DNA of 52,548 bases from a virus (taxonomy: Duplodnaviria > Caudoviricetes). The stretch lies in the IMG/VR virus record IMGVR_UViG_3300025000_000022, positions 1 through 52,548 of that record; one strand, given 5' to 3'. Every line of letters begins with the position of its first letter. Position 1 is the stretch's first letter. The notes under the pieces are model-generated. The model ran no database searches. It was given only the letters and a program-made list of their open reading frames with translations, and was not told where the DNA came from. Positions 1 through 52,548 of the stretch are shown here, one piece after another. Position numbers and translations under genes: made by a program.

Positions 1-149
1 CTAAAGGATAGTCGTTGAACCTTTCTCTAATATATTAGAGACTTGGCTGCGGATTACTCAATCTTTTAATATATTAAAAGCTCTAAGAGCTTCCCCGACA
101 ATTAAAGAAGATTCATATATATGTCACCACATATATGGGCATTTAGTTT
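1..149 (-). ncRNA. Group I intron (5' part, truncated by window edge) inserted after D-Y-D-G in the beta'-like RNAP gene
   Basis: The minus strand begins AAACTAAATGCCCATATATGTGGTGAC right after exon ...GATGGT (ends in U; P1 GGU|A pairs with UGCC). It contains Q-like AATCCGCAGC and R-like TTCAACGACTA, and is nearly identical to the 5' part of the intron at 51306-52079. Confidence 0.88.
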
Positions 150-158
150 ACCATCATA
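150..158 (-). CDS. rpoC: 9-nt micro-exon (TAT GAT GGT = Y-D-G) of the beta'-like RNAP subunit, part of the catalytic DxDGD motif
   Basis: Joined to the upstream exon end GGT GGG GAT it gives LGGD-YDG, matching NADFDGD. Group I introns flank it on both sides. Confidence 0.85.
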
Positions 159-533
159 TATTTTACCTATATTTTCATATAGAATGGACTATCTTATCAC
201 CATACAGATAATAGAAAGTATTATCTGATTAGGGTCCTGTGCTTCCCAACCAGCCCGCAAACTGGTTAGTACCTCTAATCACTTATATTATATAAGTTTT
301 CAATTAGTCTCTATATTCCTATGAATTAAGATTAATTCATAAAAACACGGTATTACCAAGCTAACCATATTTCAGGTCCTTAGGGTCTCTTACGAAGCAT
401 ATTCGTCGGCTGTCAAATACCGCTTATTTCCGCTTCTACCGTTAGCAAGAGTTAAACTCTCACACCGCTTGTTAGGCGTTCACAGGATTTTTTACTATGC
501 CGTTTCCAACATAGGGGGACCATGATTGATCAA
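159..533 (-). ncRNA. Group I intron (IA-like, different family from the other four), no ORF, apparent terminal A
   Basis: P1 GGGGAU/GUCCCC; P2 with GAAA loop; P3 UCCUGUG/CACAGGA; P7 GAGACUA/UAGUCC; P7.1 and P7.2 hairpins; P9 CUAUAU-GAAA-AUAUAG; P10 AUCAUG pairing with exon UAUGAU. Confidence 0.88.
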
Positions 534-1218
534 ATCCCCACCGAGACCTGTTAAATACAGGTTTGACATTGTTACTGTATCAGCAAAGGCAACAGAAACT
601 TTATCTTTAGGCATTTTAATATATATTTTAGGGTAGTGCTCATATACCCTAGAACCAACAAACATAGGTATAGTTTCATGTGTTGATAAAACATGTATTT
701 TATTAGGAAAGGTACCGAAGTAATCTAAAACAGGGTATCTTGTTATATATACATGTTTATCAGAAGTAATTTCAACTGCTGCTTGATATAAAATATCACA
801 CCACGTAGCAGGTCTTTGAACTAAAGGTGATTCTGTTTCAGGAACACCTTTAATAAATTCTCTACCAATAAAGCTTAAATAAATATTTTTATCATATTTA
901 GGATCATCTACCGGTAATTTAATTTTTTCAAATCTATCACCATAACTAGATATAAATCTATTAATTTGTTTCTCAATATATTCATCATTAAAATATAATT
1001 CAGGAGATTTTAATTTAACATAAATAATTTCTTCTGTCTTTAATCTAACGGGATATTTCATATAAAGTCGTTCTAATTCTCTTTGAAAAAATCTTTTTAC
1101 CCATGAAATCATATATGGTGTACATAATGAACAGCATTGTGATAAGGGAATACCACAATTATAAAAATCAACTTTCATTTCTTCTGATTTATTTGCTTTG
1201 AATATTGGTGCTGAAATT
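534..1218 (-). CDS. rpoC: Exon 2 of phage RNA polymerase beta'-like subunit
   Basis: Reads (V)ISAPIF...GIPL...ITRYPVL (compare NRAPTL)...LTGLGGD, and is in frame with exon 1 after removing 1219-1596. Confidence 0.9.
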
Positions 1219-1596
1219 CGTTGTATTCACATAGATCGTTAATCTATGCAGTTCTCTTATGAACTTCCCTAGTTTTCACTAGGATACTAGACTATATCTT
1301 CATCATTTGATGGTTCCCTGTTTCGATTTAAGGGATTCTCACCCACTCACTTAAGCCCTACTCTACTCACTTTATTTACCAATATTTATTTTAATGGTAA
1401 ACAAGTTTTTGATAGTCGTTGAACTTTATTCCTCAATAATATTATAGGAATCTTAGCTGCGGATAACCCAATCTATTACCTTGTTACCATATCTAAGGCA
1501 TTACCCTTCGCCACTAATATATTACTATATTAGTTTGGTAGTAAGAGATTTAAAAGGCTTCCCCGACAATTAAAGAATCACGTGCATTGTAATTTT
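1219..1596 (-). ncRNA. Group I intron (IA-like), no ORF, inside the RSV|ISAP motif of beta'
   Basis: The 5' exon ends AGTGT and pairs with IGS GCAC; P10 AAATT/AATTT; R TTCAACGACTA; S GAAGATATAGTCT; ends ...ACAACG. Splicing restores GTA ATT TCA GCA CCA (V-I-S-A-P). Confidence 0.92.
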
Positions 1597-2315
1597 ACAC
1601 TCCTAACACCAAAATCTATTGATTTACCTAATAATGATTTACGAATCAATCCTTGTTTCTTTTCTATCTTACCTTTAAGTAAATCATAAATTTCAACAAG
1701 AGTTTCTTGAATTTTAGATTTAGTTGTATTTAAAACAAAATCAAAACTATTGCTGTTATTTAACATGGAAGCAAATCTAATTAATTTAGCATATTTATCA
1801 TTAATTTCATGATGAGATACTCTTCCTTCAGATGCAAATTGTAAATTCACATCTCTAAAAAAAGCAGGCATAACAACCCAATATTTAGTAAATAAAACAT
1901 CTTTTCCATATGAATCTAAAACAGAAATTCTTTCATTTCTCATCATACTATTATTTCTTTTAAAATTAAATTTATCCCAATTTTTATATAAGAATTCTAT
2001 TCCACTTTCACCATTTTCATCTTCAATTAATTCTCCATCTTTGATTATAAAATTTACATTACCATAAACAGCAGATTCAAATTTCCTATTCATTCTTTTT
2101 AATGTCTTAAATATAAAAGGATGTAAAAAATGTCCATGTAAATCTATATAAGCATATGTTTCTTTTCTATCTCTAGCAGAAACTCCAAATATATCTGTTG
2201 ACAATAATCCATCAACAGTTGGAATATTCCCTTTTTCAAATAGAATTAAATTAGTTACTTCTCTTAGATTATTCACTTCAATAAATTTTTTAGTATCATA
2301 TAATTCTATTTGCAT
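1597..2315 (-). CDS. rpoC: Exon 1 of phage RNA polymerase beta'-like subunit
   Basis: GLLSTDIFG, YAYIDL..HFLHP and KKQGLIRKSLLGKSIDFGVRSV match conserved RpoC motifs (GLFCxxIFG, GHIEL, [23 protein letters not shown]). Confidence 0.93.
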
Positions 2316-2686
2316 CCATATAACAACTCCTCTCTTAATATATTATTATTTTCTATTGTTATATTGATATTTTTAATACCTTTTATAACATTGAAAATAA
2401 AATAATCTTTGTATTTAAAACTAGATTTACTATTAACTTCATTATTGAATGTATTAAAAAATTTATCTCTTTCTTTTTTTGTTTTAAATGAAATATATAT
2501 ATATAATTTTGTTGACTCTTCTTGACATTTAATATCTAGTATATTCTTTAAGCTAATATTGTCTATAATATAATAAAAATATTTGAATTTCTCATAATGT
2601 CTATTAATAATATTTTCAAATAATGAACAATCAGCCAACTCATTACGAGTAAGCTGATTGAATACATAGATAATGTCATTTAACAT
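2306..2686 (-). CDS. Hypothetical protein overlapping the beta' start
   Basis: 126-aa ORF with AAAGGGG RBS; its stop overlaps the start of the next gene. Confidence 0.7.
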   Translation of the reverse strand: MLNDIIYVFNQLTRNELADCSLFENIINRHYEKFKYFYYIIDNISLKNILDIKCQEESTKLYIYISFKTKKERDKFFNTFNNEVNSKSSFKYKDYFIFNVIKGIKNINITIENNNILREELLYGCK

Positions 2687-5494: not shown

Positions 5495-8400
5495 TTGTGT
5501 TTAAAATTGATTAAGTGTATTATATGTAATGACAAATTTAATCATATTGAAGACTTGTATGAACATTTTGAAGATGAACATAATGAAAGTATACCTAAAA
5601 ATTTCACTCCAGCTCAATATATATATTTTTTAAAAACAGGTAAAGATAAAGGTAAATGTATTGTATGTAAAAGACCAACTAAATGGAATGAAGTTACTAA
5701 TAAATATTTAAGATTTTGCCCATTAATGCAATGCAAAGATAAGTATAGAGAATTATTTAAAGAAAGAATGATTGGTAAGTATGGTAAAATACATTTATTA
5801 AATAGTCCTGAACAACAAAAAAAGATGTTAGCTAATAGAAAGATATCAGGTGAATATATTTGGTCTGATGGAACTAAAAAAACATATACTGGTTCATATG
5901 AATTAGATCTATTAAAATTTTTAGATATATTTTTAAGATTTAGTTCAGAAGATGTAATGACACCATCACCTCATGTATATTATTATGAATATGAAGGTGA
6001 AGAAAAATTTTATATACCCGATGCGTTTATACCATCTTTGAATTTAGAAATAGAGGTAAAAACTGGCAAAGATAATGAAAATAATCATCCTAAGATCCAA
6101 GCTGTAGATAAAGTTAAAGAAAGATTAAAAGATAAAGTGTTAATGAGTCAATCAACCTTTAATTATATAAAGCTTACTAATAAGAATTATGACGCTTTAT
6201 TTGAATTTTTGAAACAAGCTAAAGAAAGATTTATTGAATCAAATGGTGAAGATAATAAACCTATATTTGTTTTAATGGAGTCTTATGAAAATATTATTGA
6301 TGTTGATATCATAATGGAGGTTGAATATCACCGTGCATTAAGAATATTAGGTGATACAAAAGATAAAGAAAAATTAGGACCAAGAGAATTTTATAATAAA
6401 GTAGCTTTTAGATATATTTATAAAGTTGGTAATAAAAATGCTGGATTCATTGAAGTAAAAGTTAAAAAAGGTTACGCTTTCTTTAATATATTCATTAAAG
6501 AAGAATTTCGTGGTAAAGGTATATCACACGCTTTAATGAATGAGGGTCTTGAATTTTGTCATCGTTCTAAAAGAGATATAAATACAATGGTTTTAAATAT
6601 AAAAAAAACTAATAATATTTCTATTAAATTGGCTAAAAAATATGGATTTAAAGAACAAAAAAGTGATAAAGTTAATAAAACTCATATTAGGTTTATTAAA
6701 CTTGTTGGAGAATTTGTTAAAGAATCATTTATAAAAGAAAATAAAGATGAAAAAGCTATTGATCTCAGCTATGATATAAGACCAGATTCTGATTATAATT
6801 CTGAACAATTAAAGATTGGTATAGAAATTGAACAGGAACACACTAAAAATTTAGATAAAGCTAGAATGATTGCTAAAGATCATTTAGATGAAATTCCTGA
6901 TTATTATAGCAGATTAGTTAAAATGGAAAAAGAAGCTGAGGGAGAGAAAGATATTATTAGTAAAGAATCATTTTTTAATGCAGATGAATTAAAAAATATT
7001 AAGATTAAAGTACCTATTATAACTTTCCCAAAAAAAGAATGGAGTAGTATAAAGAAAAGACTTAATTCTGGTAAAGTTGTTTATACTATTCGTGTATATG
7101 TTGAAAGACATAAATATGTAGAAAACAATGTTTATCAAACTGAGTGGGGAACCGCTGTACAAGTTATTAGTGTTAATGAAATAAAAAGTATAAATGAATA
7201 TGAATTTAAAGAATATTTAGATGATGAGATGAAAAAGGATATTGGTGGTGCTAGAAAATTAGAAGTTATAGCTTTAAAGAAAATAAATGATTCATACATC
7301 TCTGAAACATATTATAAAGTTAAAGATTCAAAAATATCTGGTAAAGGTATATTTGCAAATAAAAATGTTGATGTTAATACCAAATTATTAGCTATAAAAA
7401 AAGTTGATAATACTGGTAATCCAGATAAAGATTATGAACGAACTAAAGCCGGTCAATTCGTTAATCATTCAAATAATCCTAATTTAGTATTAGTTCAAGC
7501 TATTAGAAATGGGAAGAAAGTTTATTTCTATAAATCTAAAGATAAAATTAAAAAAGGTGAAGAATTAACTATAGATTATAGACAATTTGATTTTGAGGGT
7601 AAAAGAGATTTTGTAAAAGAATCTTCTTTTATTAAAAATATACCCGATGCTATAAATAAGGAAACAAAAATATATTTTGCAATAACTAAAGATGAGATAA
7701 AATTGGATAAATTAGTTTATACTAGTGATAATAAAAATAAAGTCATTAATATGTCTATAAATAATATGATTAAATCTATTATAGAACAAAAACTAGAAAA
7801 TTTATTAACTCATTATGTTGAAATCCCCGTTTCATCAACTTCAGAAATTAAAATAAATACTAATATAATTTCTGATGATAAATTTGATTTTACATCAATA
7901 GATACTCCTTTTACTATAGATCTAAAAAAATATCCTATACGTGAAATTATTTATGATAACTTAACTGAATCATATAATAATAATTTATATCCTGTATTTA
8001 TACTATTAACTTTTACTAATACTAATATGGCTAAAGCTATTAAGTTTGTTACTGGTGAACCGTATAGTCATGTAAGTATTTCTTTTGATAGTAGTATGAA
8101 TGATATGTATAGCTTTGGTAGAAAATTTAAAGATTCTAATATGACTTTTATTAATGAAGATATAAAAGATGGATTATTTAAAGATGTTATTAAAGATACA
8201 ATTTATTCATTATATGTAATATTTGTTACTAAAGAACAAAAAGAATTAATGATAAATAAATTAGAAGAGTTTAAAAAGAAAAAAGACAAATTAAAATTTA
8301 ATTTTATTGGATTATTTAATATATCTATCGGTAAAGAAACTGACAGACAAAATGAATATTTTTGTAGTCAATTTGTAGCTGAGATATTAAAAGCTTCTAA

Positions 8401-38091: not shown

Positions 38092-41000
38092 TTAAAGAGT
38101 TCTACCACCAGCTATCTTTTTAGCTATTTCATACTCTCGTTGTTCTTTACTATTACCATTATTATTACTTTTCTCATTCATAGACTGAAAAAATGGTGTA
38201 ACAAATGTATTTTTAGGTTGCTGAGAATTAACATTGATATTGTTAACTTGATTATTACCTTTTTCTTCATTGTTATTATTATTACTTATATTAACTATTA
38301 AATCTTTGTTAGCTATTTCAGCAATACCTTTTGATGTTGTATTAGTATTTATTGCAATTTCTTTTAATACGGTAATTAATTCATTAAGTGATATATTTGA
38401 ATTCTGTGAATTACTGTTATTAATGTATTCGCCCATTCTATTATTTAAACTTTCAAATATATTACGATTATATCTAATTTTAGTACTCTTATATTTATTT
38501 AAAACAGATGATGTTAAATCTCCTAAACCACCAGAGAATTTATTTGAATTAGATGAGTTATTATTAAATATAATATTACTATCTTCACCAAAACCACCAG
38601 ATGTTTTATTAAAATTAGATTGAATACTGAAATTACCATTACCTCCAACTTCTGGAGTCCAACCAGATAATTTAGAATAAGTATTTTTTATCCTACTAGA
38701 ATATATTCCTTTATTACCCCAATAACTTTTATTTTTAAATTCATCCATAAAATGTTCGAATTCAGATTTCCCACCATTATCTGGATTATATTTCGCTAAA
38801 AAGGTTTTAACTAAATTTGGACCCGTATTAGCAAAATCAGCAAGAAATGCTATTGATCTTGGATCTTTTATTTTATTAGTATCAACCCCATATTTATATA
38901 CTGGGGCTAAATTAGTATCTCTAATATATGATAAAGCCATATCATTTTGAACTTTTTGACTTACACTAATATTATCTCTAAGGAATTTTTTCAATCTTGC
39001 TCTTTGTGATTCACTCCAAGGACTTTGATTACCCCAATTTACTTGATTAGCAAAATAATTAGCTTCACTATTACCAGGTAATTGTTCATACATTCTTTGC
39101 ATTAATGATTTGGCATTGTTACCTCTCCATTGTAATATACCTATAGATGGAGAAATTGTTGCTCCAGTTGACGCATTTCTATCATTATTAGAACTAGTAT
39201 AATCACCTGATGATTCAGAACCAACAGATAATTCTAATGTTTTCTTTAAAATAGATTCTTGTAATGTTTTAGGTATAAAATTAGTTAAACTATTATTAGA
39301 ATCATTAGTTATTGAAACATTAAAATCATTACTTTTACCTTCTTCATCCCATGACACTAACTTATTCGTCCCATTCATTAAATTCTCATTATATAATGTA
39401 AATGCTTCGGTCATTTTTGCAAATAAGTCTAGTGTTGTTAATTTTTTGTTTGTTCCACTATTCAGTTCATTATTGTTATCTGACGAAACTATATTTGGAG
39501 GTAAGGTTCCACCATTATAACTAAAAGCCCAACCTTGTCTAGCTTCTTTAGTTACTTTATCAAAATTGTATAGTTTAGAAAATTTGGGTCCTCTAGGATC
39601 ATTTATTAAAACATTTCCATTTGCATCTCTTCCAACAGCAACAACATAATGTCCACCTGGCGTAAAAGGAGATTCAGTTAATGGGTATTTATCTCTTTTT
39701 CCAGATAAAATTACAGGCATACCATTATTAAGATAATTCATTGTATTAGAAGGATTAATTGTTGAAGTATCTAAACTAAAATCCTTAGCAACTTTATTAA
39801 AGTAACCCCATGTTGTTCCATCATTTGTACTATAACCACCATCTTGTGCTATTTTAGCTAATTGAGGTGGTTCATATCTTTTACCTGTTAATTGACTAAC
39901 AACCATTGCCATAGAAGTTGGTCCACAACCTCTAGCAGACAAAGTTGGATGAATTGAGTGTCCTGAACTTAAATCATATTTTGATTTTCCCCATCTATCA
40001 TCATATTGAGAATAATATGCGAAATTATTAAGTTGATTTGGTTCTTCACCAAACCCACCTTTACTCTCACTACCATTTCCACCTAATAATAAATTTATTT
40101 TATTTGTTGAATATCCCTGTTTAACTAATTGATTTGTTATATATTCATTACTTTTACCTTGTTTGCGTGCTTCTTTAATCTGATTTATAGTGCTACTTTC
40201 AGTCACTTTATTTATTAAAATTTCTACTTTGTTACTAGCAAAATCTGTTACAGATATAGCATTTCCTTTATTATCTTTAAATCCTAATAAACTACCTAGC
40301 CATTTATCAAAATTCTCAAAGGCTTTTGGTAATTTTTCAGTTAATTTTTTCCATTTTTCTGCAACAAAATCCTTTGTACTATTCCAGTATGTTCTAGCAC
40401 CTTCACTAATATCATTCCAACTATCTCTCACACCTTTTAGAATTTCATCATATTTTTTATTAAATTGAGTTGTGAAACTAACATCATCACCATTATCATC
40501 TTTAAAGCCGAATAGTTTTCCTAATGTAGTATTAGTATCTTTCATCCAATTTGATATATCATTTTTAGTTTCACTCCATGATTTTTTTACACCAGTAACA
40601 GCATTATTCCAACCATCTTTAATCGAATCAGTAAATTTAGTAACACCGTCTACAATGTTAACTCTACCAGTTTCTAAAATTCTACCAACTTTTTCTGATT
40701 TTATATAACCAAGTGTTGAACTTTCAACAAATCCACTAATACCAGATAATACTCTTTGTGTGGATGATACTTTACTATCATCAAATAAACCTAAATTAGA
40801 TCTAGTTTTATCAATACTAAAATTATTAGTGAAATCACCAAATGACGATTTATTATATAGTGTCGAAAAATCATTCTTAACTTTTGAAAGTGGATTACTA
40901 ATAAATTTTTGGAAAAAAGTTTTATTTTGTTTATCATTAAATGCATTTAAAGATAAATTGGTATTATTTTCTTTATTGTATTTATCTTTATCCTCTTCAA

Positions 41001-44000
41001 AAACTTTTTCATTCATTTCTAATTTTTTAAGTTCTTCTGAACTTGCTAGTATTGAATAAATTGTTGTAGCTACATATTGTTTTAAACTTGTTCCAGTTTG
41101 CTCATTAAATATTTCTGATAAAATATCAATTACAGGAAAGAACCCAACTAATGATTTGGTTATAGATGATGCTATTCTCATTTTTGTATCTATTGACTCT
41201 TCCCTAACTTTAAATATTCTCGATGCTTCATATGCACCTGTAGCTAAATCCCATGAGATTATCACTGGTGCTGCAAATATTTTTGCTCCAGTTTTTAAAA
41301 AAGCCATTGACAGTTTACCCATATATTTAAACATGGATTTATAATTTAATACTTTTGTGACAGTGTTTATTATTGTACTAGATATTTTTGCTGCTGCTGG
41401 ACCTAATTTATTTTTAACAAATGAATTATTAAAGAATCTCTCAAAAGTATTTTTAATAGCTTGAATAATTTTATTAGAGTCGTTTACTGTAACTTCTTTA
41501 ACTATTTTACCAGTTTCATCTGTTACCTTAAAAGATACATCTATAGCCCCATTTCTAACAACATTAGGTGTAGAAAAAGCATTTTTTAAATTAGATCCAT
41601 ATTTAACAATATTCTTTGTAAAATTAGAATTTTTTATTTTATCTGTAACTCCAGCTAAAGAATTCACTATTTTAGAACCATGTCTTCTAGCGGTAATTAA
41701 ACCACCTTTAACTAAACTTTCTCTATATTGTCCATTTATTATTTTTTTATTAGTTACTCCATTTTCATCAACATCTTGACGACTTTCATCATTTTTTTCA
41801 CCTAAATTTATTATTCCATTACCAATTTCAGGAATAGAAGGAAATTTACCTTTAATCCATTGTATAATATCTTTTAAATAAGGAATTAATAATAATAAAC
41901 CGGCTGTAAGCAATCCTTTTGAACCAAATATTGATAACCAGCTATCATGTTGACTTTTTGTAGTATCAGCAATACGTTGTAATAGTGATGTTTGTTTCAC
42001 TTCATTATTTCTGGTAAAATCTTTTTCATTTCTTAAATTATTTTGAGCTATTAAAAATCCTGCTGTTTTTCTAGAAACATCCTTTTGGTCTTGTTGTAAT
42101 TCAGATTCTTTATTTCTTTCTTTCTGTCTGTTCTCTTCTTCAATATCATTTTGATTATCAAATAAATTAAGAGCACCTAATAAGGAACTACTTATATCAC
42201 TACCCATATTTTTTAAACCTGGTGGTAAACCAGGAACATTAAATGACGAATTCCTTTGCTGTGATTGATTTATATTAAAATAAACTGGTATTGGTCTATC
42301 TGAACCAACTATTTTAACGGGAGTAATAATATTATTAGAAATAGAAGTTCCTTTTATATTATTAGTAAGATTTGATTTATTATCACCTATTTGTCTAACT
42401 ACATCAATTATACCACCTGTTATATACATTTCTGAACGATTTATACCCATTGATCTACCAATTAAATCGGCTGCAAATCTTAATGGTGAAGTAGCTATTT
42501 TAAATAATGATTTAGTAGCAGATGTTAATAATCCCCCAACACTTTTCATTACACCAAAACCAAAGTCCATAATCATTTTAGTTGATGTTAATAGAAAGTC
42601 ACCTACAACTGGAACAATACTCATGAGTCCCTTAGTAAAAGTTGAAATTGTTGAACCAATAGCTTCACCAATCCCATAAGCAACTTGACCTATACCTTTA
42701 CCAATACCTATCATTGATTCAGCAATCATTCCCATTGTACCTGAAAATAATTTAGCAACACCTTTAAGAGTTTCACCAATAGCAGGTGCTATCATTTTTA
42801 CTGATTCAGCAAATATTTTTGTAGTCTGAGCAAATAAATTTAATAATTGACCAGGTAATTTAACTATAGTTAAAAATGTCTCTTTACCTATTGATAATAT
42901 TTCAGAACCTATATTATACATAGTTGAAAATATTTGTTTAGGTACAGTAACTAATATTGTCTTACTAAAATCAAATATTTTTTTACCAACAGAAGTAATT
43001 TTATCAGTTACAAATTGAATAGAGCCCATAACTTTCTCTTTAATAGTGTCTATAGGTTTATATAACATTTTTCTAACTTTACCTAATAATCCAACTCTGT
43101 CTCTATTTGAACTACCACTTAAATCTTCATCTGATATACCTTGTTGTGATTGAATCAACTTTCTTATTTTATACACATTACCACCAACACCATCAAGCTG
43201 ACCATTAACTTCTTTAGCAATGGTTCTAACATCTCCTGCTATTTGAATTATTAATTCATCTTTTGATTTAATTCTACCAATAGATGTTTTTTTAGTTGGT
43301 TGTGTAATTTGACTAATAGTTGGCTGAGATATAGATGAATCTTCTGTTTGTTGTTGATTTATATTTGGTTGATTTGTAGGTGAAGTTGTTGATTTTTTAC
43401 CTCTTCTTCTACTCCCACCTGTTCTTTTGTTTATAACGTCTGTAACATCATCTACAATTGAAGATGTGTCACCTTGTTGAATTGAGCCTGGTAATATAAT
43501 TACACTTTGATCATTTACAGGTTTAGGATTAGGTCTACCTCTTCTTCGACCACCAGTTCTATTATTTATATTATTCGTAGTATCATTAATTGGATTTGAT
43601 GACATTTGTTCATTTCTTCGTTCTTCAGGACTTGAATATTGACCTCTAACAACTTTACCATCAGGGCTAAAATTGTCATAATTATTATTAATACCAGCTC
43701 TTTTTCTATCTCTCCATGCACTCCACATTTTTCTTATTTCTTCTCTTTTAGATCCAAATTCAGCATTAGCGTCATCTTCTCTTTTTTGTCTATCAATTTC
43801 TAACTGTTTAGCATATGGTGCACCCTGACTACTATTTCTAGCATCAGCTCTAGCTTGTCTATTGAAATAAATATCTTTAAATTTCTTTAAACCACCAAAG
43901 AAACCCATTCTTTCTTTACGTTCCCGTCTACCTTTAAAATCTAATAAGTCATTCCAACCTTCTTCTACATAAGCATCTAAACCAGCCTGCATATGTTTTT

Positions 44001-47000
44001 TAGTTAAACCTTTTGATAGACCTTCCATTCCTTTAAATGGTGCAGAAACTATACTACCAACTATTCTGCCAATTCCACCTAATATTTTTGACATAAAACC
44101 TCTTAATGGTTTCATAACTCTATCTTCCATAAATTTACCAAAAGGCACACCTACATGTTTTTCAAATACATCTCCGATAAAAGTTTTAAAACTGGTCCAA
44201 CCTTCTACAAAATTATCTTTTAAACTTCTTATCATTAATTTTATTTCATGTTTAATTGGATCAATTGCATTAAGAAATGGGTTAGCAATACTTCTTGTAA
44301 ACCATTCTTTAACATTTAAATTTATTTCTTGTAATTTAATCTTAAAGGGTTGAAGAACTTCTAAATTAGTCCAATTAATAACTTTACCTAATATACCACC
44401 TTTTCTTAATTGAGTTTCTTCATCAAATTCTCCAAATAATGCTTTTTTCCATTTTTCAGATGATAAAGCTATACCAGCAGCGGCTCCTAATAAAGCTCCA
44501 CCTAAAGGTCCACCAGGTAATAAAGCGGCACCTAATAAACCGAATTTACTTGTAATTAATCCTATACCCGCACCACCTAATATACCTGCACTAACATTAC
44601 CAAACATTTTTTTAGCCTTAGCTTTATCAACTTTACCAAATACTTTTTCAGCTATTCCACCAAGTCTAGTTCCATCTGCTTTTAAATCACCAAACATAAA
44701 TTTCTTAAACTTTTCTGAACTAGCTAACATTGATACTCCAACACCAAATAAAGCACCGCCAATAGGACCACCAGGTAAAAAGAATGAAGGTAAAAAACCA
44801 AAACCTAATATAGATTTAAGAGCTCCTAAAGTAGCACCACCAACAATACCAACTTTGTTCTTCTTAAAGAACTCTTGAGTTTTCTTAGTAACATATCCAC
44901 CAATTCTGGTTCCATTAATATCTTTAGGACCAAATAACCAATCTTTAAATTTATCTGATTGTGATAAGAAACCAACTGTGGTACCTACAATAGCTCCACC
45001 TAATGGACCACCAGGTAAAAATAATGAACCTAATAAACCTAATTTACCACCCATTAATAAACCACTACCAGCTCCAACAATACCAAATGATAATGCTTTG
45101 GGTAATCTTTCTTTAAATTTTTTAAATAAATCCCCAACTATTACATAGTTTTTATTATCTTTACCACCAATTTTACGTGGACCAAAAATAGCATCTGAAA
45201 AGTTTTGAAAACCATCTTTTATACTATTAACAGCAGTTGAAAGTACACCTTTTTCTTGTATATTACCATCTTGATTTCTTCTACCAAATAAATATGATGT
45301 TATAGTATTTTTAAAACCTGAGAACATTGATTTTAATTCACCAAATACACTCTTATTATTACTAGGAAAAGAAACTCCTGATCTATTTATATAAGCTTTA
45401 CCAGTAAAATAATATTTAGCATTATCAAATATATCTAAAAGATGATTAGATGTATCTGAAAACATTCCACCTTTTCTTTTACCAGTAGAATCTTTTAAAC
45501 CAAATAAAAAATCTGTTAATTTACTAAAATTAGATTTAACTCCTTTAAAAAATTCAGAATCTTTTAATTTAGTTATAAAACCATTAGGACCAAATAAAGA
45601 TTCTCTAATTGGAGTAAATATTTTATCTTTAAACCATTCTGTCATTGTTTGAAATTTACTTTGCATTAAAGCCCAGCTTCTATTAAGAAAAGATGAATTA
45701 CCACTTTCATCATCACCAAAAATTATCTTAAACATACTATTATCTATTTTTTTAAATACAGTATTAAGTAATTTTGCAGGAGTGTTAAAAATATCTCTTA
45801 CTTTTTCTCTTAATAAATTATATTTAGTTTGCATATCACCCGATATAAAACTTCCCAACCATCCACTCTGTTGTCTTCTATCTCTTTCAGAATCACTTCT
45901 TCTTTGTTCATCAAATATTCTAATTTGGTCTCTCATTTCTTCAGCAGTTATATCGGAATTTGATAACCTATTTACTATTTTTTTACCTTGTTGTCTATTA
46001 ATTCTTTCTAGCTCGGGTGTAATCTCAATGTCTTGTTGTGGTTTTACTTTGAATTTTCTATCTCTTTCTCTTTCTTGAGTTCTCATTCTTCTTAATTGTC
46101 TATCATGATATTCAAAACTTGGTTGAGAAACTGAACCATCCGGATTAATTAATTGAGTTACAGGAAATACTTTAATACCCCTTAATAAAATCTCTTTAAT
46201 ATCACGAAAATAATCTAAATCAGATTTACCAAATTGATCAGTTCTAGATAAAACACCAAAACCTTTTTTTACTTCAAATTGATTTCTATTATTTTTATTT
46301 CTTTTAATATGGTCATCAAAAGATAATTGATTATTAAGAATAGCCGCATTATATCTTAATGGGTCATTTTCCATATCAGTAAATATTTTTTCTTTATTCT
46401 TTCTAGCATTTAATACATCTGCACCAAACATTTTTTGTATATCACCTTTATTAAGTGATAATACTATTTGTCTAAAAAAATTATTCATTTCTTCACTACC
46501 AAAATCATGAACATTTTTCAATTCATTTATATTAGCTCCACTTTTATCTTTAGTTCTTACAGGATTTACTAATTTATTTAAAGTAGGTAGTTTTAAGAAA
46601 AAACTTTCTAAATCTTTATTAAATTTTTTTCTTTCTTCATCATTTTGAATATTAAAAGCATTAGCTTTATCTTTTATTTCACTCATAACATCTGAAAAAC
46701 TATTTAACACAGTTCTATTAACAGTACTTTGGAAATCTTTTTTCATAGAATCCATAGAATTGAATATACCTTTGTCATAATCAAATCCGACTTCTTCTTT
46801 ACCATTTAATGCAGCTAAAATCTTTCTTAAATATCCTGGTATAACTTCAGTTATAGATTTTCTTGTTTGACCATCAAAAGGAACTGCACCTTTATCATAT
46901 TGAGATAAATCGACAGATGATTTTTGTTTTACGTTTATACCAAAAACTTGACCTAAAAAATTTAATATAGGATTATCAGAACCAACCATTCTATTAGCTT

Positions 47001-48057
47001 TCATCAATAAAGCTGGAAAGAAATTTTCAAAACTTTTATTCATACTAGTTAAAGTTTGTTTTAACATTGATGGAATAAATGCAGATACTATTTTGGTAGA
47101 TAAAAAACTTATAGGTGATGCGGCTAAAAATTTTAATTGATCTTTATCTGATAACATATATTTTAACTGAGATAAAATCATATCTTGATCTACAGCTGCA
47201 CCAAATTGTTTTTTAACTAAATTAGCATAACCGGATAAATTTAATCCACCTTTAGATAAAAAAACTGATTCCATTGGATCAACTTTTTCTTTAACAACTT
47301 TCTCTTCAGATGAACCTTTTTTCATTTGATTATGAATATTATTAAATGCATTTAAACTTTCTTCATAATATTTAAAAGTTGTACTTATATATCTGGTCAT
47401 TGATTCACTTTGAAAATTAACAAGTAGGCTTAAATTATCATTTATTGCACTTAATCCTCTATTTAAATCTTCACCAAGTTTTCTATTTATCATCATATGA
47501 TTAGTAGCTAAAGATATAGATATTTTATCACTAGCTTGAGTTGTATTATATATAGCTTCAGTTTGTCTTTCTACAGCTTTGACCATAGGATTATTTCTAT
47601 TAATATTAGAAGAAACAATTACTCTATTAATAGTAGGTGAACCACTTTCAGATGTTGTTTCAGAAGATACTTTATAATCATCATTTTCAAAATTTAATTC
47701 ATCACCAAATTCAAAATCTATATCATCTTTAAATATTTCATTCTGTCTATCTTTATTATATATTTTACCTGACTTAATATCTTTTAAAGCATTTTTTATT
47801 GCCGTTTGACCTATATTAATATATTCATTCTTAACCATTTGATCTGATAATTTTTTACTTAAAGATTTACTTTGTCTTAAATCATTATAGAAATTTTTAA
47901 ATGTTTCGGTATTACTTTTAATAAAATCTATTGGTGCTGGAATCATTTCTTCAATTAATTCAGTTGTAGTATATCCTAAGGATTTACCAACATTTTTAAA
48001 CCAATTTAAAGCTGTAGGTGATTTAGATTTAATTTTAGTTCTATTTTTTATCTCCAA
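38092..48057 (-). CDS. Giant tape-measure-like virion protein with C39-like peptidase and lysozyme-like C-terminal domains
   Basis: 3321 aa, largely helical; three Gly-rich hydrophobic LPGGP(L/I)GGA repeats; YYSQ.D.RW..GCGPTSMAMV..GHYVV..INDP (C39-like); SESSGDY..SIGILQW (lysozyme-like); late promoter at 48094-48105. Confidence 0.8.
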   Translation of the reverse strand: MEIKNRTKIKSKSPTALNWFKNVGKSLGYTTTELIEEMIPAPIDFIKSNTETFKNFYNDLRQSKSLSKKLSDQMVKNEYINIGQTAIKNALKDIKSGKIYNKDRQNEIFKDDIDFEFGDELNFENDDYKVSSETTSESGSPTINRVIVSSNINRNNPMVKAVERQTEAIYNTTQASDKISISLATNHMMINRKLGEDLNRGLSAINDNLSLLVNFQSESMTRYISTTFKYYEESLNAFNNIHNQMKKGSSEEKVVKEKVDPMESVFLSKGGLNLSGYANLVKKQFGAAVDQDMILSQLKYMLSDKDQLKFLAASPISFLSTKIVSAFIPSMLKQTLTSMNKSFENFFPALLMKANRMVGSDNPILNFLGQVFGINVKQKSSVDLSQYDKGAVPFDGQTRKSITEVIPGYLRKILAALNGKEEVGFDYDKGIFNSMDSMKKDFQSTVNRTVLNSFSDVMSEIKDKANAFNIQNDEERKKFNKDLESFFLKLPTLNKLVNPVRTKDKSGANINELKNVHDFGSEEMNNFFRQIVLSLNKGDIQKMFGADVLNARKNKEKIFTDMENDPLRYNAAILNNQLSFDDHIKRNKNNRNQFEVKKGFGVLSRTDQFGKSDLDYFRDIKEILLRGIKVFPVTQLINPDGSVSQPSFEYHDRQLRRMRTQERERDRKFKVKPQQDIEITPELERINRQQGKKIVNRLSNSDITAEEMRDQIRIFDEQRRSDSERDRRQQSGWLGSFISGDMQTKYNLLREKVRDIFNTPAKLLNTVFKKIDNSMFKIIFGDDESGNSSFLNRSWALMQSKFQTMTEWFKDKIFTPIRESLFGPNGFITKLKDSEFFKGVKSNFSKLTDFLFGLKDSTGKRKGGMFSDTSNHLLDIFDNAKYYFTGKAYINRSGVSFPSNNKSVFGELKSMFSGFKNTITSYLFGRRNQDGNIQEKGVLSTAVNSIKDGFQNFSDAIFGPRKIGGKDNKNYVIVGDLFKKFKERLPKALSFGIVGAGSGLLMGGKLGLLGSLFLPGGPLGGAIVGTTVGFLSQSDKFKDWLFGPKDINGTRIGGYVTKKTQEFFKKNKVGIVGGATLGALKSILGFGFLPSFFLPGGPIGGALFGVGVSMLASSEKFKKFMFGDLKADGTRLGGIAEKVFGKVDKAKAKKMFGNVSAGILGGAGIGLITSKFGLLGAALLPGGPLGGALLGAAAGIALSSEKWKKALFGEFDEETQLRKGGILGKVINWTNLEVLQPFKIKLQEINLNVKEWFTRSIANPFLNAIDPIKHEIKLMIRSLKDNFVEGWTSFKTFIGDVFEKHVGVPFGKFMEDRVMKPLRGFMSKILGGIGRIVGSIVSAPFKGMEGLSKGLTKKHMQAGLDAYVEEGWNDLLDFKGRRERKERMGFFGGLKKFKDIYFNRQARADARNSSQGAPYAKQLEIDRQKREDDANAEFGSKREEIRKMWSAWRDRKRAGINNNYDNFSPDGKVVRGQYSSPEERRNEQMSSNPINDTTNNINNRTGGRRRGRPNPKPVNDQSVIILPGSIQQGDTSSIVDDVTDVINKRTGGSRRRGKKSTTSPTNQPNINQQQTEDSSISQPTISQITQPTKKTSIGRIKSKDELIIQIAGDVRTIAKEVNGQLDGVGGNVYKIRKLIQSQQGISDEDLSGSSNRDRVGLLGKVRKMLYKPIDTIKEKVMGSIQFVTDKITSVGKKIFDFSKTILVTVPKQIFSTMYNIGSEILSIGKETFLTIVKLPGQLLNLFAQTTKIFAESVKMIAPAIGETLKGVAKLFSGTMGMIAESMIGIGKGIGQVAYGIGEAIGSTISTFTKGLMSIVPVVGDFLLTSTKMIMDFGFGVMKSVGGLLTSATKSLFKIATSPLRFAADLIGRSMGINRSEMYITGGIIDVVRQIGDNKSNLTNNIKGTSISNNIITPVKIVGSDRPIPVYFNINQSQQRNSSFNVPGLPPGLKNMGSDISSSLLGALNLFDNQNDIEEENRQKERNKESELQQDQKDVSRKTAGFLIAQNNLRNEKDFTRNNEVKQTSLLQRIADTTKSQHDSWLSIFGSKGLLTAGLLLLIPYLKDIIQWIKGKFPSIPEIGNGIINLGEKNDESRQDVDENGVTNKKIINGQYRESLVKGGLITARRHGSKIVNSLAGVTDKIKNSNFTKNIVKYGSNLKNAFSTPNVVRNGAIDVSFKVTDETGKIVKEVTVNDSNKIIQAIKNTFERFFNNSFVKNKLGPAAAKISSTIINTVTKVLNYKSMFKYMGKLSMAFLKTGAKIFAAPVIISWDLATGAYEASRIFKVREESIDTKMRIASSITKSLVGFFPVIDILSEIFNEQTGTSLKQYVATTIYSILASSEELKKLEMNEKVFEEDKDKYNKENNTNLSLNAFNDKQNKTFFQKFISNPLSKVKNDFSTLYNKSSFGDFTNNFSIDKTRSNLGLFDDSKVSSTQRVLSGISGFVESSTLGYIKSEKVGRILETGRVNIVDGVTKFTDSIKDGWNNAVTGVKKSWSETKNDISNWMKDTNTTLGKLFGFKDDNGDDVSFTTQFNKKYDEILKGVRDSWNDISEGARTYWNSTKDFVAEKWKKLTEKLPKAFENFDKWLGSLLGFKDNKGNAISVTDFASNKVEILINKVTESSTINQIKEARKQGKSNEYITNQLVKQGYSTNKINLLLGGNGSESKGGFGEEPNQLNNFAYYSQYDDRWGKSKYDLSSGHSIHPTLSARGCGPTSMAMVVSQLTGKRYEPPQLAKIAQDGGYSTNDGTTWGYFNKVAKDFSLDTSTINPSNTMNYLNNGMPVILSGKRDKYPLTESPFTPGGHYVVAVGRDANGNVLINDPRGPKFSKLYNFDKVTKEARQGWAFSYNGGTLPPNIVSSDNNNELNSGTNKKLTTLDLFAKMTEAFTLYNENLMNGTNKLVSWDEEGKSNDFNVSITNDSNNSLTNFIPKTLQESILKKTLELSVGSESSGDYTSSNNDRNASTGATISPSIGILQWRGNNAKSLMQRMYEQLPGNSEANYFANQVNWGNQSPWSESQRARLKKFLRDNISVSQKVQNDMALSYIRDTNLAPVYKYGVDTNKIKDPRSIAFLADFANTGPNLVKTFLAKYNPDNGGKSEFEHFMDEFKNKSYWGNKGIYSSRIKNTYSKLSGWTPEVGGNGNFSIQSNFNKTSGGFGEDSNIIFNNNSSNSNKFSGGLGDLTSSVLNKYKSTKIRYNRNIFESLNNRMGEYINNSNSQNSNISLNELITVLKEIAINTNTTSKGIAEIANKDLIVNISNNNNNEEKGNNQVNNINVNSQQPKNTFVTPFFQSMNEKSNNNGNSKEQREYEIAKKIAGGRTL

Positions 48058-50310: not shown

Positions 50311-50359
50311 TATATATACATGTTGGTACAGAAAAATGTACCAACATGTATATTTTTTT
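50311..50359. terminator. Bidirectional terminator
   Basis: TATACATGTTGGTACA / TGTACCAACATGTATA between convergent genes. Confidence 0.8.
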
Positions 50360-51305
50360 ATTTCTCATCATAAATATTTTTTAACTTTCTTTTTAATTCT
50401 ATTAATACTTTATTACCAAACATTGATAAAATAACAGATGGGGTCATTCTATTCATTACTGCTCCTGGAGCAACTACTGAAGATATTTCTTCATCTGGTC
50501 TAAATAATGAGTATGGTTCATAACCTTCAGGAATAACTTCACCAACAATAGATTTTAATGCAGTAAAGAAACATATTTTATCGCCAACACCAACTGTATC
50601 TTTATATTTAATATAAAATATTATTAAAACTCCTGAATTAACTGTATGACCTTTAACTTTACCATCTTTAGTTTCAATCTTACCAACTGGCTCATTTAAC
50701 ATTATACCGCATTTATAAACAGAGTCAGATTTATCATATTTATTAATAATTTTCTTTTTCTTATTAATTCTGTCATAATAATTAGTAACAATCTTTTTCA
50801 ATGTTGGAGATAGTTCTTCAACATCTACAGTTGAATATACTTTGATATCTTCAATTACACCAGAATATTTAGTTTTAATGGGTGTTTTACCCATTGCTTT
50901 AATTTCTTCTTTTAATTCATTACCAACATTTGAAAGAAATTTATTTAATGAATCATCTTTAAAAGAAACTTCAAATCTAATTAATTCATCACCAACACTA
51001 ACATTTTGACCTATTTCAACTATATAATCAACATTAGCATTTTTACCTAAGACAACAGGTTTTTCCATAACAATTTCTGTTGCCATATCTTCACTTAATT
51101 TCTTACTAACAAATGTAGAATCTTCATATGTTGAATAAGAGGACATACAAGCAATTTTCTGTAATGAACCAATATTGAATCTGTTACCATATAATTTACT
51201 ATTACTAAAAAAATTACTATCATAAGCCAATATATCTTTTTTCTTTATTTTTTGCCCAACTTTTAAATCACATGATAATTTATTTGATAAAAAAAAACCT
51301 CCAGC
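50358..51305 (-). CDS. rpoB: Last exon of phage RNA polymerase beta-like subunit
   Basis: AGGFFLSNK..KVGQ; TYEDS..VS; VGDKICFFTALKSIV (GDK..K catalytic lysines); MNRMTPS (SRMN-like). Confidence 0.88.
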   Translation of the reverse strand, partial: AGGFFLSNKLSCDLKVGQKIKKKDILAYDSNFFSNSKLYGNRFNIGSLQKIACMSSYSTYEDSTFVSKKLSEDMATEIVMEKPVVLGKNANVDYIVEIGQNVSVGDELIRFEVSFKDDSLNKFLSNVGNELKEEIKAMGKTPIKTKYSGVIEDIKVYSTVDVEELSPTLKKIVTNYYDRINKKKKIINKYDKSDSVYKCGIMLNEPVGKIETKDGKVKGHTVNSGVLIIFYIKYKDTVGVGDKICFFTALKSIVGEVIPEGYEPYSLFRPDEEISSVVAPGAVMNRMTPSVILSMFGNKVLIELKRKLKNIYDEK

Positions 51306-52079
51306 CGTTTAAATTCATATTGTTCGTTAAACAATACAGTTCTCTTATGAACTTCCCTAACTTTCATTAGGATACTAGACTATATCTTCATCTCATAGAG
51401 ATGCTTCCTATTTCGATTTAAGGGATTCTCACCCACTCACTTGAGCCCTACTCCTATTGCTTATTTCAAAGCTAAAGGATAGTCGTTGAACCTTTCTCAT
51501 AGTATTTTATTATTTTTCATTTATATATTATTTATGTAATATAAAAAAGAAAGGAATGATATATTTATGCCTATCACTTACAAAGATATTTTAATGAATG
51601 GTATTAAAGAATTAGATACAGAATATAGTTCTAAAGAATCCATAGATATAACTAAAAAGTTCTTTGAACAAAGATTTCATAATGAGTTAAAACAATACAA
51701 CGGGGATACCGAAAAAGCTACAGACGAATTTATCACCCGTAGAAATTTAGAACTTTTTAGATACTATATCGAAGAAACTTTCTTATTATATGATGAATTA
51801 TATAATAAGAAAAATCCTGAAGAAATGAATAAACTATATTCTATTAGAGCTTCTCTTCGTGACATTCATAATTGTCTTTGTCATGTAATGAAAGGTAAAG
51901 AATATTGTTAAAATTAGTTTAAAAGAGTTGTAATTTTTATAGCTCTTTTATTTTTTTTACTATGAGACTTAGCTGCGGATTACTCAATCTTTTTATTATA
52001 TAATAAAAAGCTCTAAGAGCCTCCCCGACAATTAAAGAAGATTCATATATATGTCACCACATATATGGGCATTTAGTTT
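51306..52079 (-). ncRNA. Group I intron (IA-like) carrying an antisense ORF cassette in the P6-region loop
   Basis: 5' exon ends AATGGT; intron ends ...TTTAAACG; splicing gives KVVKNG|AGGFF in frame; Q, R and S elements shared with the paralogous introns. Confidence 0.92.
51567..51911 (+). CDS. Intron-embedded antisense ORF of unknown function (114 aa)
   Basis: Early motif at 51522-51531, AAAGGA RBS, terminator at 51921-51957; no LAGLIDADG, GIY-YIG or HNH motif seen. Confidence 0.8.
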   Translation: MPITYKDILMNGIKELDTEYSSKESIDITKKFFEQRFHNELKQYNGDTEKATDEFITRRNLELFRYYIEETFLLYDELYNKKNPEEMNKLYSIRASLRDIHNCLCHVMKGKEYC

Positions 52080-52311
52080 ACCATTTTTTACTACTTTAGG
52101 ACTAGTATCAATTGCTTTAGTTTCTCCATTTTTATATTTAATAATAACTAAACCAGTTTCATTATTAATCTCAACAACTTCACCATCATCTTTAGCAACA
52201 ACAGAAAAATCATCAGATAAATGATATTGAATAACTTGTTCAACCCCATTAGATAGTAAAACAGGAGATTGTTTTACTACAGGCACGATATGTTTTGATT
52301 GCTTTACACTC
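52080..52311 (-). CDS. rpoB: Internal exon of the RNA polymerase beta-like subunit
   Basis: SVKQSKHIVPVVKQSPVLLSNGVE..VVAKDDGEV corresponds to RpoB NMQRQAVP....PLVGTGME...A...G.V. Confidence 0.85.
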
Positions 52312-52548
52312 CATTTATTTCACATAGGTCGTTAATCTATGCAGTTCTCTTATGAACTTCCCTAACTTTCATTAGGATATAAGACTATATCTTCATCCTT
52401 ATTATTAAATAATAAGGAGTCTCCTATTTCGATTTAAGGGATTTTCACCCACTCACTTGAGCCCTACTCCTGTTGCTTATTTCAAAGCTAAAGGATAGTC
52501 GTTGAACCTTTCTCTAATATATTAGAGACTTGGCTGCGGATTACTCAA
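52312..52548 (-). ncRNA. Group I intron (3' part, truncated by window edge)
   Basis: R TTCAACGACTA, S GAAGATATAGTCT, and a 3' domain nearly identical to that of 1219-1596; ends ...AAATAAATG before the exon (boundary uncertain by 1 nt). Confidence 0.88.

Follow-up and report, generated by a model that had tools for sequence, protein, structure and literature searches.

Intron 1 of an RNA polymerase gene at the start of a 52,548-nt viral contig (the window, meaning the whole stretch of DNA that was analysed) is a group I intron whose last nucleotide is A, at position 159 on the minus strand, in place of the terminal guanosine (omega-G), which is a near-universal trait of such introns and not part of their structural definition. 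From the reading frame, the fold and the relatives described below, A159 is probably a real omega-A variant that would still be spliced between A159 and U158, perhaps slowly or with help. Few features of group I introns are as conserved as the terminal G, which has a central place in the single-binding-site model of both splicing steps.

The window is a single contig and makes up the whole of its record. The gene at its start (minus strand) encodes the beta' subunit of a multisubunit RNA polymerase, in its N-terminal half, and is of the jumbo-phage virion RNAP type. When the translation of exon 2 was searched against phage records with tblastn, 25 jumbo phages were matched, with Bacillus phage BpSp on top at 38% identity, and the best annotated relative of the gene was AR9 g145, 'virion RNAP subunit, beta' N-terminus'. 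A Pfam search of exons 1 and 2 gave no match. Homology to annotated beta' genes and the spliced reading GGD-YDG identify the gene as a beta' subunit, the third Asp of the motif lying beyond the contig; the sequence-only reading had called the gene essential, and it does encode an RNAP subunit of the essential type. IMG/VR yielded 27 related loci, on contigs that reach 264 kb in length; two loci (L001 and L020) were 94-95% protein-identical to exon 2. The start of the window is laid out as follows.

1597..2315, minus strand: exon 1 of the beta' N-terminal RNAP gene, ending ...GKSIDFGVRS-V, identified as an ORF and by tblastn to jumbo-phage beta' genes
1219..1596, minus strand: intron A, group I, of a type unlike intron 1; Rfam RF00028 46.8 bits; last base G1219
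534..1218, minus strand: exon 2, ending ...TGLGGD, ...TMSNLYLTGLGGD; gives the first Asp of DxDGD
159..533, minus strand: intron 1, ORF-less group I, 375 nt, with extra hairpins between P7 and P3' (IA-like); last base A159
150..158, minus strand: mini-exon UAUGAUGGU, 9 nt, Tyr-Asp-Gly of DxDGD; same layout in L008 (UACGACGGU), and L190 has UUCGACGGC
1..149, minus strand: 5' part of intron 2, group I, running off the contig; Rfam RF00028 40 bits at model positions 1-150; full homologous copy in L020

Intron 1 is inserted directly after the first Asp codon of the DxDGD motif, where the 5' exon ends at 534 with GGU GGG GAU, and the rest of the beta' gene beyond intron 2 is off the contig. Read by hand, the intron A junction AGUGU/...ACAACG/AAUUUCAGC restores RSVISAP (slashes between nucleotides mark splice sites here and below).

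On the minus strand, positions 166..150 read G U A A A A U A / U A U G A U G G U. The junction of U534 with U158 is the only one that restores GGD-YDG, and the base preceding it is A159; a pair of sites shifted by 1 nt (after U533 and after U158) would give the identical mRNA with U at omega. Nearby G167, G166, G155, G152 and G151 were tried by hand as 3' ends and none kept the D-x-D-G-D spacing, G166 leading to a stop and G152 and G151 to a frameshift, a stop or a product without Gly-Asp. Both P10 and P9.0, given below, also point to the site after A159. When the 111-nt tail was shuffled 2000 times, 545 of the shuffles contained a 6-bp P10 match somewhere, and we rejected P10 as independent proof of the splice site because it is too weak in such an AU-rich tail; the assignment of the site is therefore based on the reading frame and homology.

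Homologous introns at the same site agree with this assignment. In L015, where a family intron stands alone at the same codon, the intron ends ...AAAAAG/UACGAUGG (...AAAAAG/UACGAUGGAGAU), and L008 has the window's architecture, with a family intron after GGD ending ...ACAUG/, the mini-exon, a second intron and GAUCAGGUU. L173, whose guide sequence is identical to the window's, ends ...AAAUG/UAUGAUGG where the window has ...AAAUA/UAUGAUGG, and L152 has the AUU/AAU P9.0 of the window followed by G. Because these four introns end in G directly before the mini-exon or exon, the terminal-G position of homologous introns corresponds to 159 in the window. In the 94% relative L020, intron 1 is missing and GGU is followed at once by intron 2. 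The sequence-only reading had proposed that the intron ends in A at 159, that reading frame, P10 and P9.0 place the splice site there and that no nearby G restores DxDG; all three statements hold, and the comparison with homologous introns that it suggested gave G at this position in relatives and A in a few. That reading had not mentioned that the 3' exon is a 9-nt mini-exon with a truncated second intron behind it.

Intron 1 is most likely a genuine ORF-less group I ribozyme, judging from a predicted fold with the following elements.

515..526, minus strand: internal guide sequence; 520..515 pairs with exon 539..534 (P1) and 526..521 with 158..153 (P10)
321..340, minus strand: short hairpin, in the place of a homing-endonuclease ORF in related introns
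305..311, minus strand: 5' strand of P7, G[A]GACUA; G309 is the guanosine-binding G, conserved in six of six aligned members
186..191, minus strand: 3' strand of P7, UAGUCC; C187 pairs with G309
160..185, minus strand: P9.0 and P9 hairpin; P9.0 is AUU 185..183 with AAU 162..160, and P9 is 182..167
159..159, minus strand: omega position, A on the RNA strand and T on the plus strand

P1 consists of 6 bp with the U534-G520 wobble expected of a group I intron, and P10 likewise of 6 bp (AUCAUG with UAUGAU). In P7 the guanosine-binding pair G309-C187 lies beside a bulged A and is canonical, as the sequence alone had indicated, and the P7 of L001 shows a compensatory change (GAUCAU with AUGAUC). P3 pairs 487..481 with 241..235 (UCCUGUG with CACAGGA) and its covariation extends to all the members that were inspected. 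With six ORF-less members, RNAalifold gave 44 pairs, 23 with compensatory changes, and the window retains 41 of the 44, the three missing pairs including alignment slips in its longer P8; the core helices P3-P8 of a group I intron are accordingly present with covariation. The intron ORF of L001, at the place where the window has its short hairpin, is of the GIY-YIG type (Pfam E 1.2e-11). By its layout, with hairpins between P7 and P3', intron 1 appears IA-like, Rfam having a single group I model. That model, RF00028, whose gathering score is 50, scored intron 1 at 20.5 bits (E 0.032 over 3 kb searched), and omega-G members of the family at 31.7 and 30.9 bits, with three of five undetected. We rejected the low score as a sign of decay since relatives score equally low; because the omega-G relatives score in that range or are missed, the value for intron 1 reflects an insensitive model and not this copy.

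We defined the family (jumbo-phage RNAP DxDGD-site introns) by the core block GUGAACGNNUAACNNNCGGUGU, which the window matches, and a search with this block gave 53 IMG/VR loci. A scan with GCTAACGGTAGAAG added one extra DxDGD-site copy, L223, which ends in G, its other matches being in other genes. A census of the block loci, the window and L223 gave 42 entries, nine of which (L144, L151, L153, L155, L157, L160, L162, L186 and L193) were left out as being in other genes or too short, so that 33 of the 42, 32 of them unique, were at beta' DxDGD sites. To assign the junctions we used the reading frame and the motif, together with, where possible, a P1 of at least 4 bp and a P10 of at least 3 bp; a brute-force junction search without structural limits was too noisy to be used. 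Omega-G was found in 24 of the 32 unique copies, or at least 22; of the 24, L147 and L149 need a choice among alternatives, and L167 reaches G only via a mini-exon of 2 nt that separates two introns. G is clearly preferred at omega in the family. Five of the 32 had omega-A, namely the window, L148, L143, L177 and L185. Three copies were assigned to neither base: L166 could be read with either G or A, and for L161 and L165, whose regions hold further introns or mini-exons, all solutions ended in U or C.

The four additional omega-A copies are flanked by long open beta'-like exons, in different paralogues and phages, with the exon contexts ...LNAD/FDGDILN, ...MGAD/FDGDTVS, ...MSGD/YDGDTVS and ...LAAD/FDGDQL. 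L148, identical in a second contig (L183), has a P1 of 5 bp and a P10 of 4 bp and, as checked by hand, no in-frame stop-free G alternative. L143 has a P1 of 5 bp and a P10 of 3 bp, and its in-frame G alternative adds three residues. L177 has a P1 of 4 bp and a P10 of 5 bp, and L185 a P10 of 4 bp by hand and a P1 broken by an A-C mismatch. All five omega-A copies keep canonical P7 strands. An association of omega-A with loss of the endonuclease ORF was considered, as A was found in three of seven short and none of 11 long introns among the first 18 junctions, and was dropped since the long L177 and L185 end in A. The pattern TCCNNNNNATATGAAAATAT gave at least 115 matches in viral contigs, almost all by chance in AT-rich DNA, and a search for a sister allele with G, using the omega-flanking pattern with N at the variable base, gave no match in viral contigs and two unrelated chance matches in metagenome contigs.

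The site itself is often occupied. Eleven of the 27 related loci carry no interruption there, with the reading (G/D)GD(Y/F)DGDQV, and 16 are interrupted within or beside the DxDGD codons at six different positions (after GG, GGD, GGDY, GGDYD, GGDYDG and GGDYDGD). Given these interruptions and the end of AR9 exon 2 in GGDYD, the beta' catalytic motif is an intron hotspot. Tandem introns at the motif were observed with mini-exons of 9 nt (the window, L008 and L190) or 2 nt (L167) between them. We also noted exon look-alikes just upstream of the true 3' exon, GAUGGGGAUCAA in L143 (~7655..7684) and AAUGGUGAUACU in L167 (~7235..7255), which may be relics of a former insertion site moved with the intron. 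Clustering of mobile introns at active-site codons is textbook knowledge (PMC12908238).

We suggest the following course of splicing for the window. In the first step, which should be normal, external guanosine bound in the G309-C187 pocket would attack after U534, marked by the U534-G520 wobble, and in the second the 3'-OH of U534 would attack the A159-U158 bond. This bond would be placed by P10 (6 bp) and P9.0 (3 bp) even if the A binds weakly, with A159 sitting poorly in, or bypassing, the unaltered G pocket; as P9.0 and P10 flank the bond and can hold it, a tolerated A-ended variant could ligate at the ancestral position. The mini-exon would then be joined to the next exon upon splicing of intron 2. 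Compared with its G-ended relatives, the window's intron probably ligates its exons more slowly, or does so with the aid of a protein or RNA-chaperone activity; the sequence-only reading had proposed unusual second-step chemistry or a helper protein. Since a few related phage introns carry the same change, A at omega is probably tolerated. A possible benefit of the A would be less 3'-splice-site hydrolysis and less intron circularisation, as has been proposed for the mitochondrial ND5-717 intron, and this could matter beside a 9-nt mini-exon. A broader version, which we put forward tentatively and regard as possible without leaning towards it, is that the family has partly freed its second step from the terminal G, such that A would work with a canonical G-C pocket by virtue of P9.0 and P10 or of a phage or host factor, and may be repeatedly selected against 3'-site hydrolysis and circularisation where tandem introns flank tiny exons.

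Several known systems resemble the window in part. Engineered adenosine-dependent Tetrahymena ribozymes, reportedly made by Michel (1989) and by Been and Perrotta (1991), use a 3'-end A in exon ligation as the window would, and their G-C pocket pair is said to have had to become A-U; this pocket change is absent in the window and in the other four omega-A copies, which keep G-C. The T4 td, nrdB and sunY and Twort orf142 introns, phage introns of the IA type that end in G, are like that of the window small, in a phage, in an essential enzyme gene and at a catalytic motif, and they too have extra hairpins separating P7 from P3'; the J8/7-P7 consensus of the window's family is AAGAUAUAGUC. AR9 g145 is the same gene, joined from three pieces with two intron-borne homing endonucleases, and its second exon ends in GGDYD within the same motif (L196, 4673). 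Group I introns in AR9-type polymerase genes were thus already known from annotation, but the AR9 insertion points differ from those of the window (after GGD and after GGDYDG), and intron 1 of the window is without an ORF.

A precedent for the terminal base is the mitochondrial ND5-717 intron of sea anemones and mushroom corals, whose last nucleotide is A and not G according to PMC8146996 and PMC6545197, which agree with the expectation of the sequence-only reading that exceptions to omega-G are rare and organellar. In PMC6545197 its exons are ligated precisely in vivo despite the missing terminal G, and in PMC8146996 it is still classed as group I and reduced 3'-site hydrolysis and circularisation is the explanation offered for its A. 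ND5-717 shares with the window an A at the end of an otherwise group I G-binding core. Unlike intron 1, it is organellar, vertically inherited and obligatory, holds genes in P8, undergoes back-splicing in some lineages and has no sequence relationship to the window, whereas the phage case is one allele in a mostly G-ended mobile family. In a partial sample of the literature, including part of the bacterial intron review PMC3984707, no A-ended intron was reported from a phage or bacterium. What appears unusual here is the combination of omega-A with an unchanged G-C pocket, in a phage and recurring.

We consider it rather unlikely, while giving it real weight, that A159 is instead a recent G-to-A mutation crippling ligation in a defective or poorly fit genome, perhaps sustained by co-infecting relatives that supply virion RNA polymerase, in which splicing would come to a halt once the first step is done or turn to cryptic sites. 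When omega-G is changed to A in model introns (Tetrahymena, T4 td), exon ligation is blocked or strongly slowed, and the predominance of omega-G in the family is in line with such a view. The J8/7 of the window is AUAAGA, where the five aligned relatives have AAGAUA or AAGAGA, and its J6/7 is UAUAGAG versus UGUAGAG in the same five; the deviant joining segments could reflect decay rather than adaptation. Related strains co-occur in two of the sequenced samples (X2 and X4), where exon depth is 50-115 versus 20.5 for intron 1, and an in-frame cryptic product, GGD-CKI-YDG, would be available. Against a defect, the A159 allele is present in three samples and is the sole variant seen in one of them (X1), and the four further A-ended copies lie in other phages and paralogues with intact flanking exons, which would be unlikely if the A were lethal. 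Exon 2 is under purifying selection by its pN/pS of 0.08-0.09 versus L001 and L020, equal to the L001-L020 value, and thus shows no relaxed selection, though a recent mutation would show none. We accordingly prefer a tolerated omega-A.

Use of a G-terminated 3' site, or an alteration of the RNA such as A-to-I editing of omega, with a polymerase that tolerates or is rescued from a changed motif, is very unlikely. Two in-frame options exist, both read by hand: U533/...G167/ would insert three residues (Cys-Lys-Ile) between GGD and YDG, and U533/...G155/ would lose the second Asp and give GGDYGD if the next exon opens with GAU, which is the case in L020 and L008. Either option would break the D-x-D-G-D spacing, and this spacing does not vary among the 11 uninterrupted relatives or, more generally, in multisubunit RNA polymerases. 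P10 for these sites has only 0-2 bp, and the P9 hairpin is closed by G167. The data give no hint of RNA editing.

There is scarcely any chance, finally, that the finding is an artefact with G as the true base at 159 or a chimeric join of intron 1 and mini-exon, even though repeated intron copies abound in the region, a 61-nt repeat forms the contig end and the support comes from contigs and not raw reads: three independently built contig sets span at least 125..361 with no differences, the same substitution occurs in unrelated IMG/VR contigs of other family members, and a chimera would need a shared word of ~31 nt whereas the stretch common to strains that have intron 1 and strains that lack it is only 9 nt here, which makes such a join implausible, with no parent to supply the A. 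Four DNA runs of one groundwater study contain the region; no RNA run containing window positions 1..2400 was present among the runs searched. The Logan contigs X1 (125..1254, depth 5.3), X2 (125..361, depth 20.5) and X4 (125..361, depth 6.6) each had 0 differences to the window, and position 159 was absent from the variants listed, at a contig level and in one study in which minor or rare G alleles are invisible. The read support that the sequence-only reading had asked about was therefore obtained in part, as the same base in contigs from three samples, at contig and not raw-read level, which suggests a replicating strain.

Small natural phage ribozymes (327-440 nt) whose main difference is a G or an A at omega, each in an essential gene and with an unchanged G-C pocket, would form a convenient test system, in which one could measure the need of ligation for omega-G when P9.0 and P10 are strong and the protection by A against 3'-site hydrolysis. 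In practice, jumbo-phage polymerase genes will be mis-annotated by gene callers that insist on a terminal G or pass over mini-exons of 2-9 nt. Should the allele be defective, it would instead document the decay of mobile introns inside essential genes.

The opposite end of the window carries a beta-like RNA polymerase gene (50358..52548, minus strand) with two more group I introns.

52311..52548, minus strand: 3' part of the first intron of the beta-like gene, ending in G52311
52080..52310, minus strand: exon of the beta-like gene
51306..52079, minus strand: intron 3, in the beta-like gene, ending in G51306
50358..51305, minus strand: exon of the beta-like gene; Pfam RNA_pol_Rpb2_6, E 4.9e-06

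Introns 2 and 3 have near-identical 5' parts (149..100 and 52079..52030, both minus strand) and both follow the exon pentamer AUGGU, a likeness which suggests that one intron spread to an ectopic site fitting its guide sequence. The continuation of the beta' open reading frame as GKLNAHICGDIYMNLL up to a stop (...YDGKLNAHICGDIYMNLL and the stop) was rejected as protein or exon, the same string opening intron 3 at 52080..52032. The contig ends share 61 identical nt (1..61 and 52488..52548), both inside copies of one intron type. We rejected a circular genome, as the ends would join the 5' half of a beta' intron to the 3' half of an intron in the beta-like gene and relatives have 150-290 kb; the two 61-nt ends come from different genes, and the contig represents only part of a phage genome that is much larger, broken inside repeated intron copies. 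When contig depth was summed over the tails of intron A and intron 2 (1..160 and 1201..1360), it came to 30 to ~700 times that of unique flanks (3612 versus 5.3 in X1, for example), so that the intron types of A and 2 are high-copy across the community. Intron 3 also contains an antisense ORF of 114 aa (51567..51911, plus strand) with no Pfam match, and an ORF of 3321 aa with glycine-rich repeats was found at 38092..48057 (minus strand).
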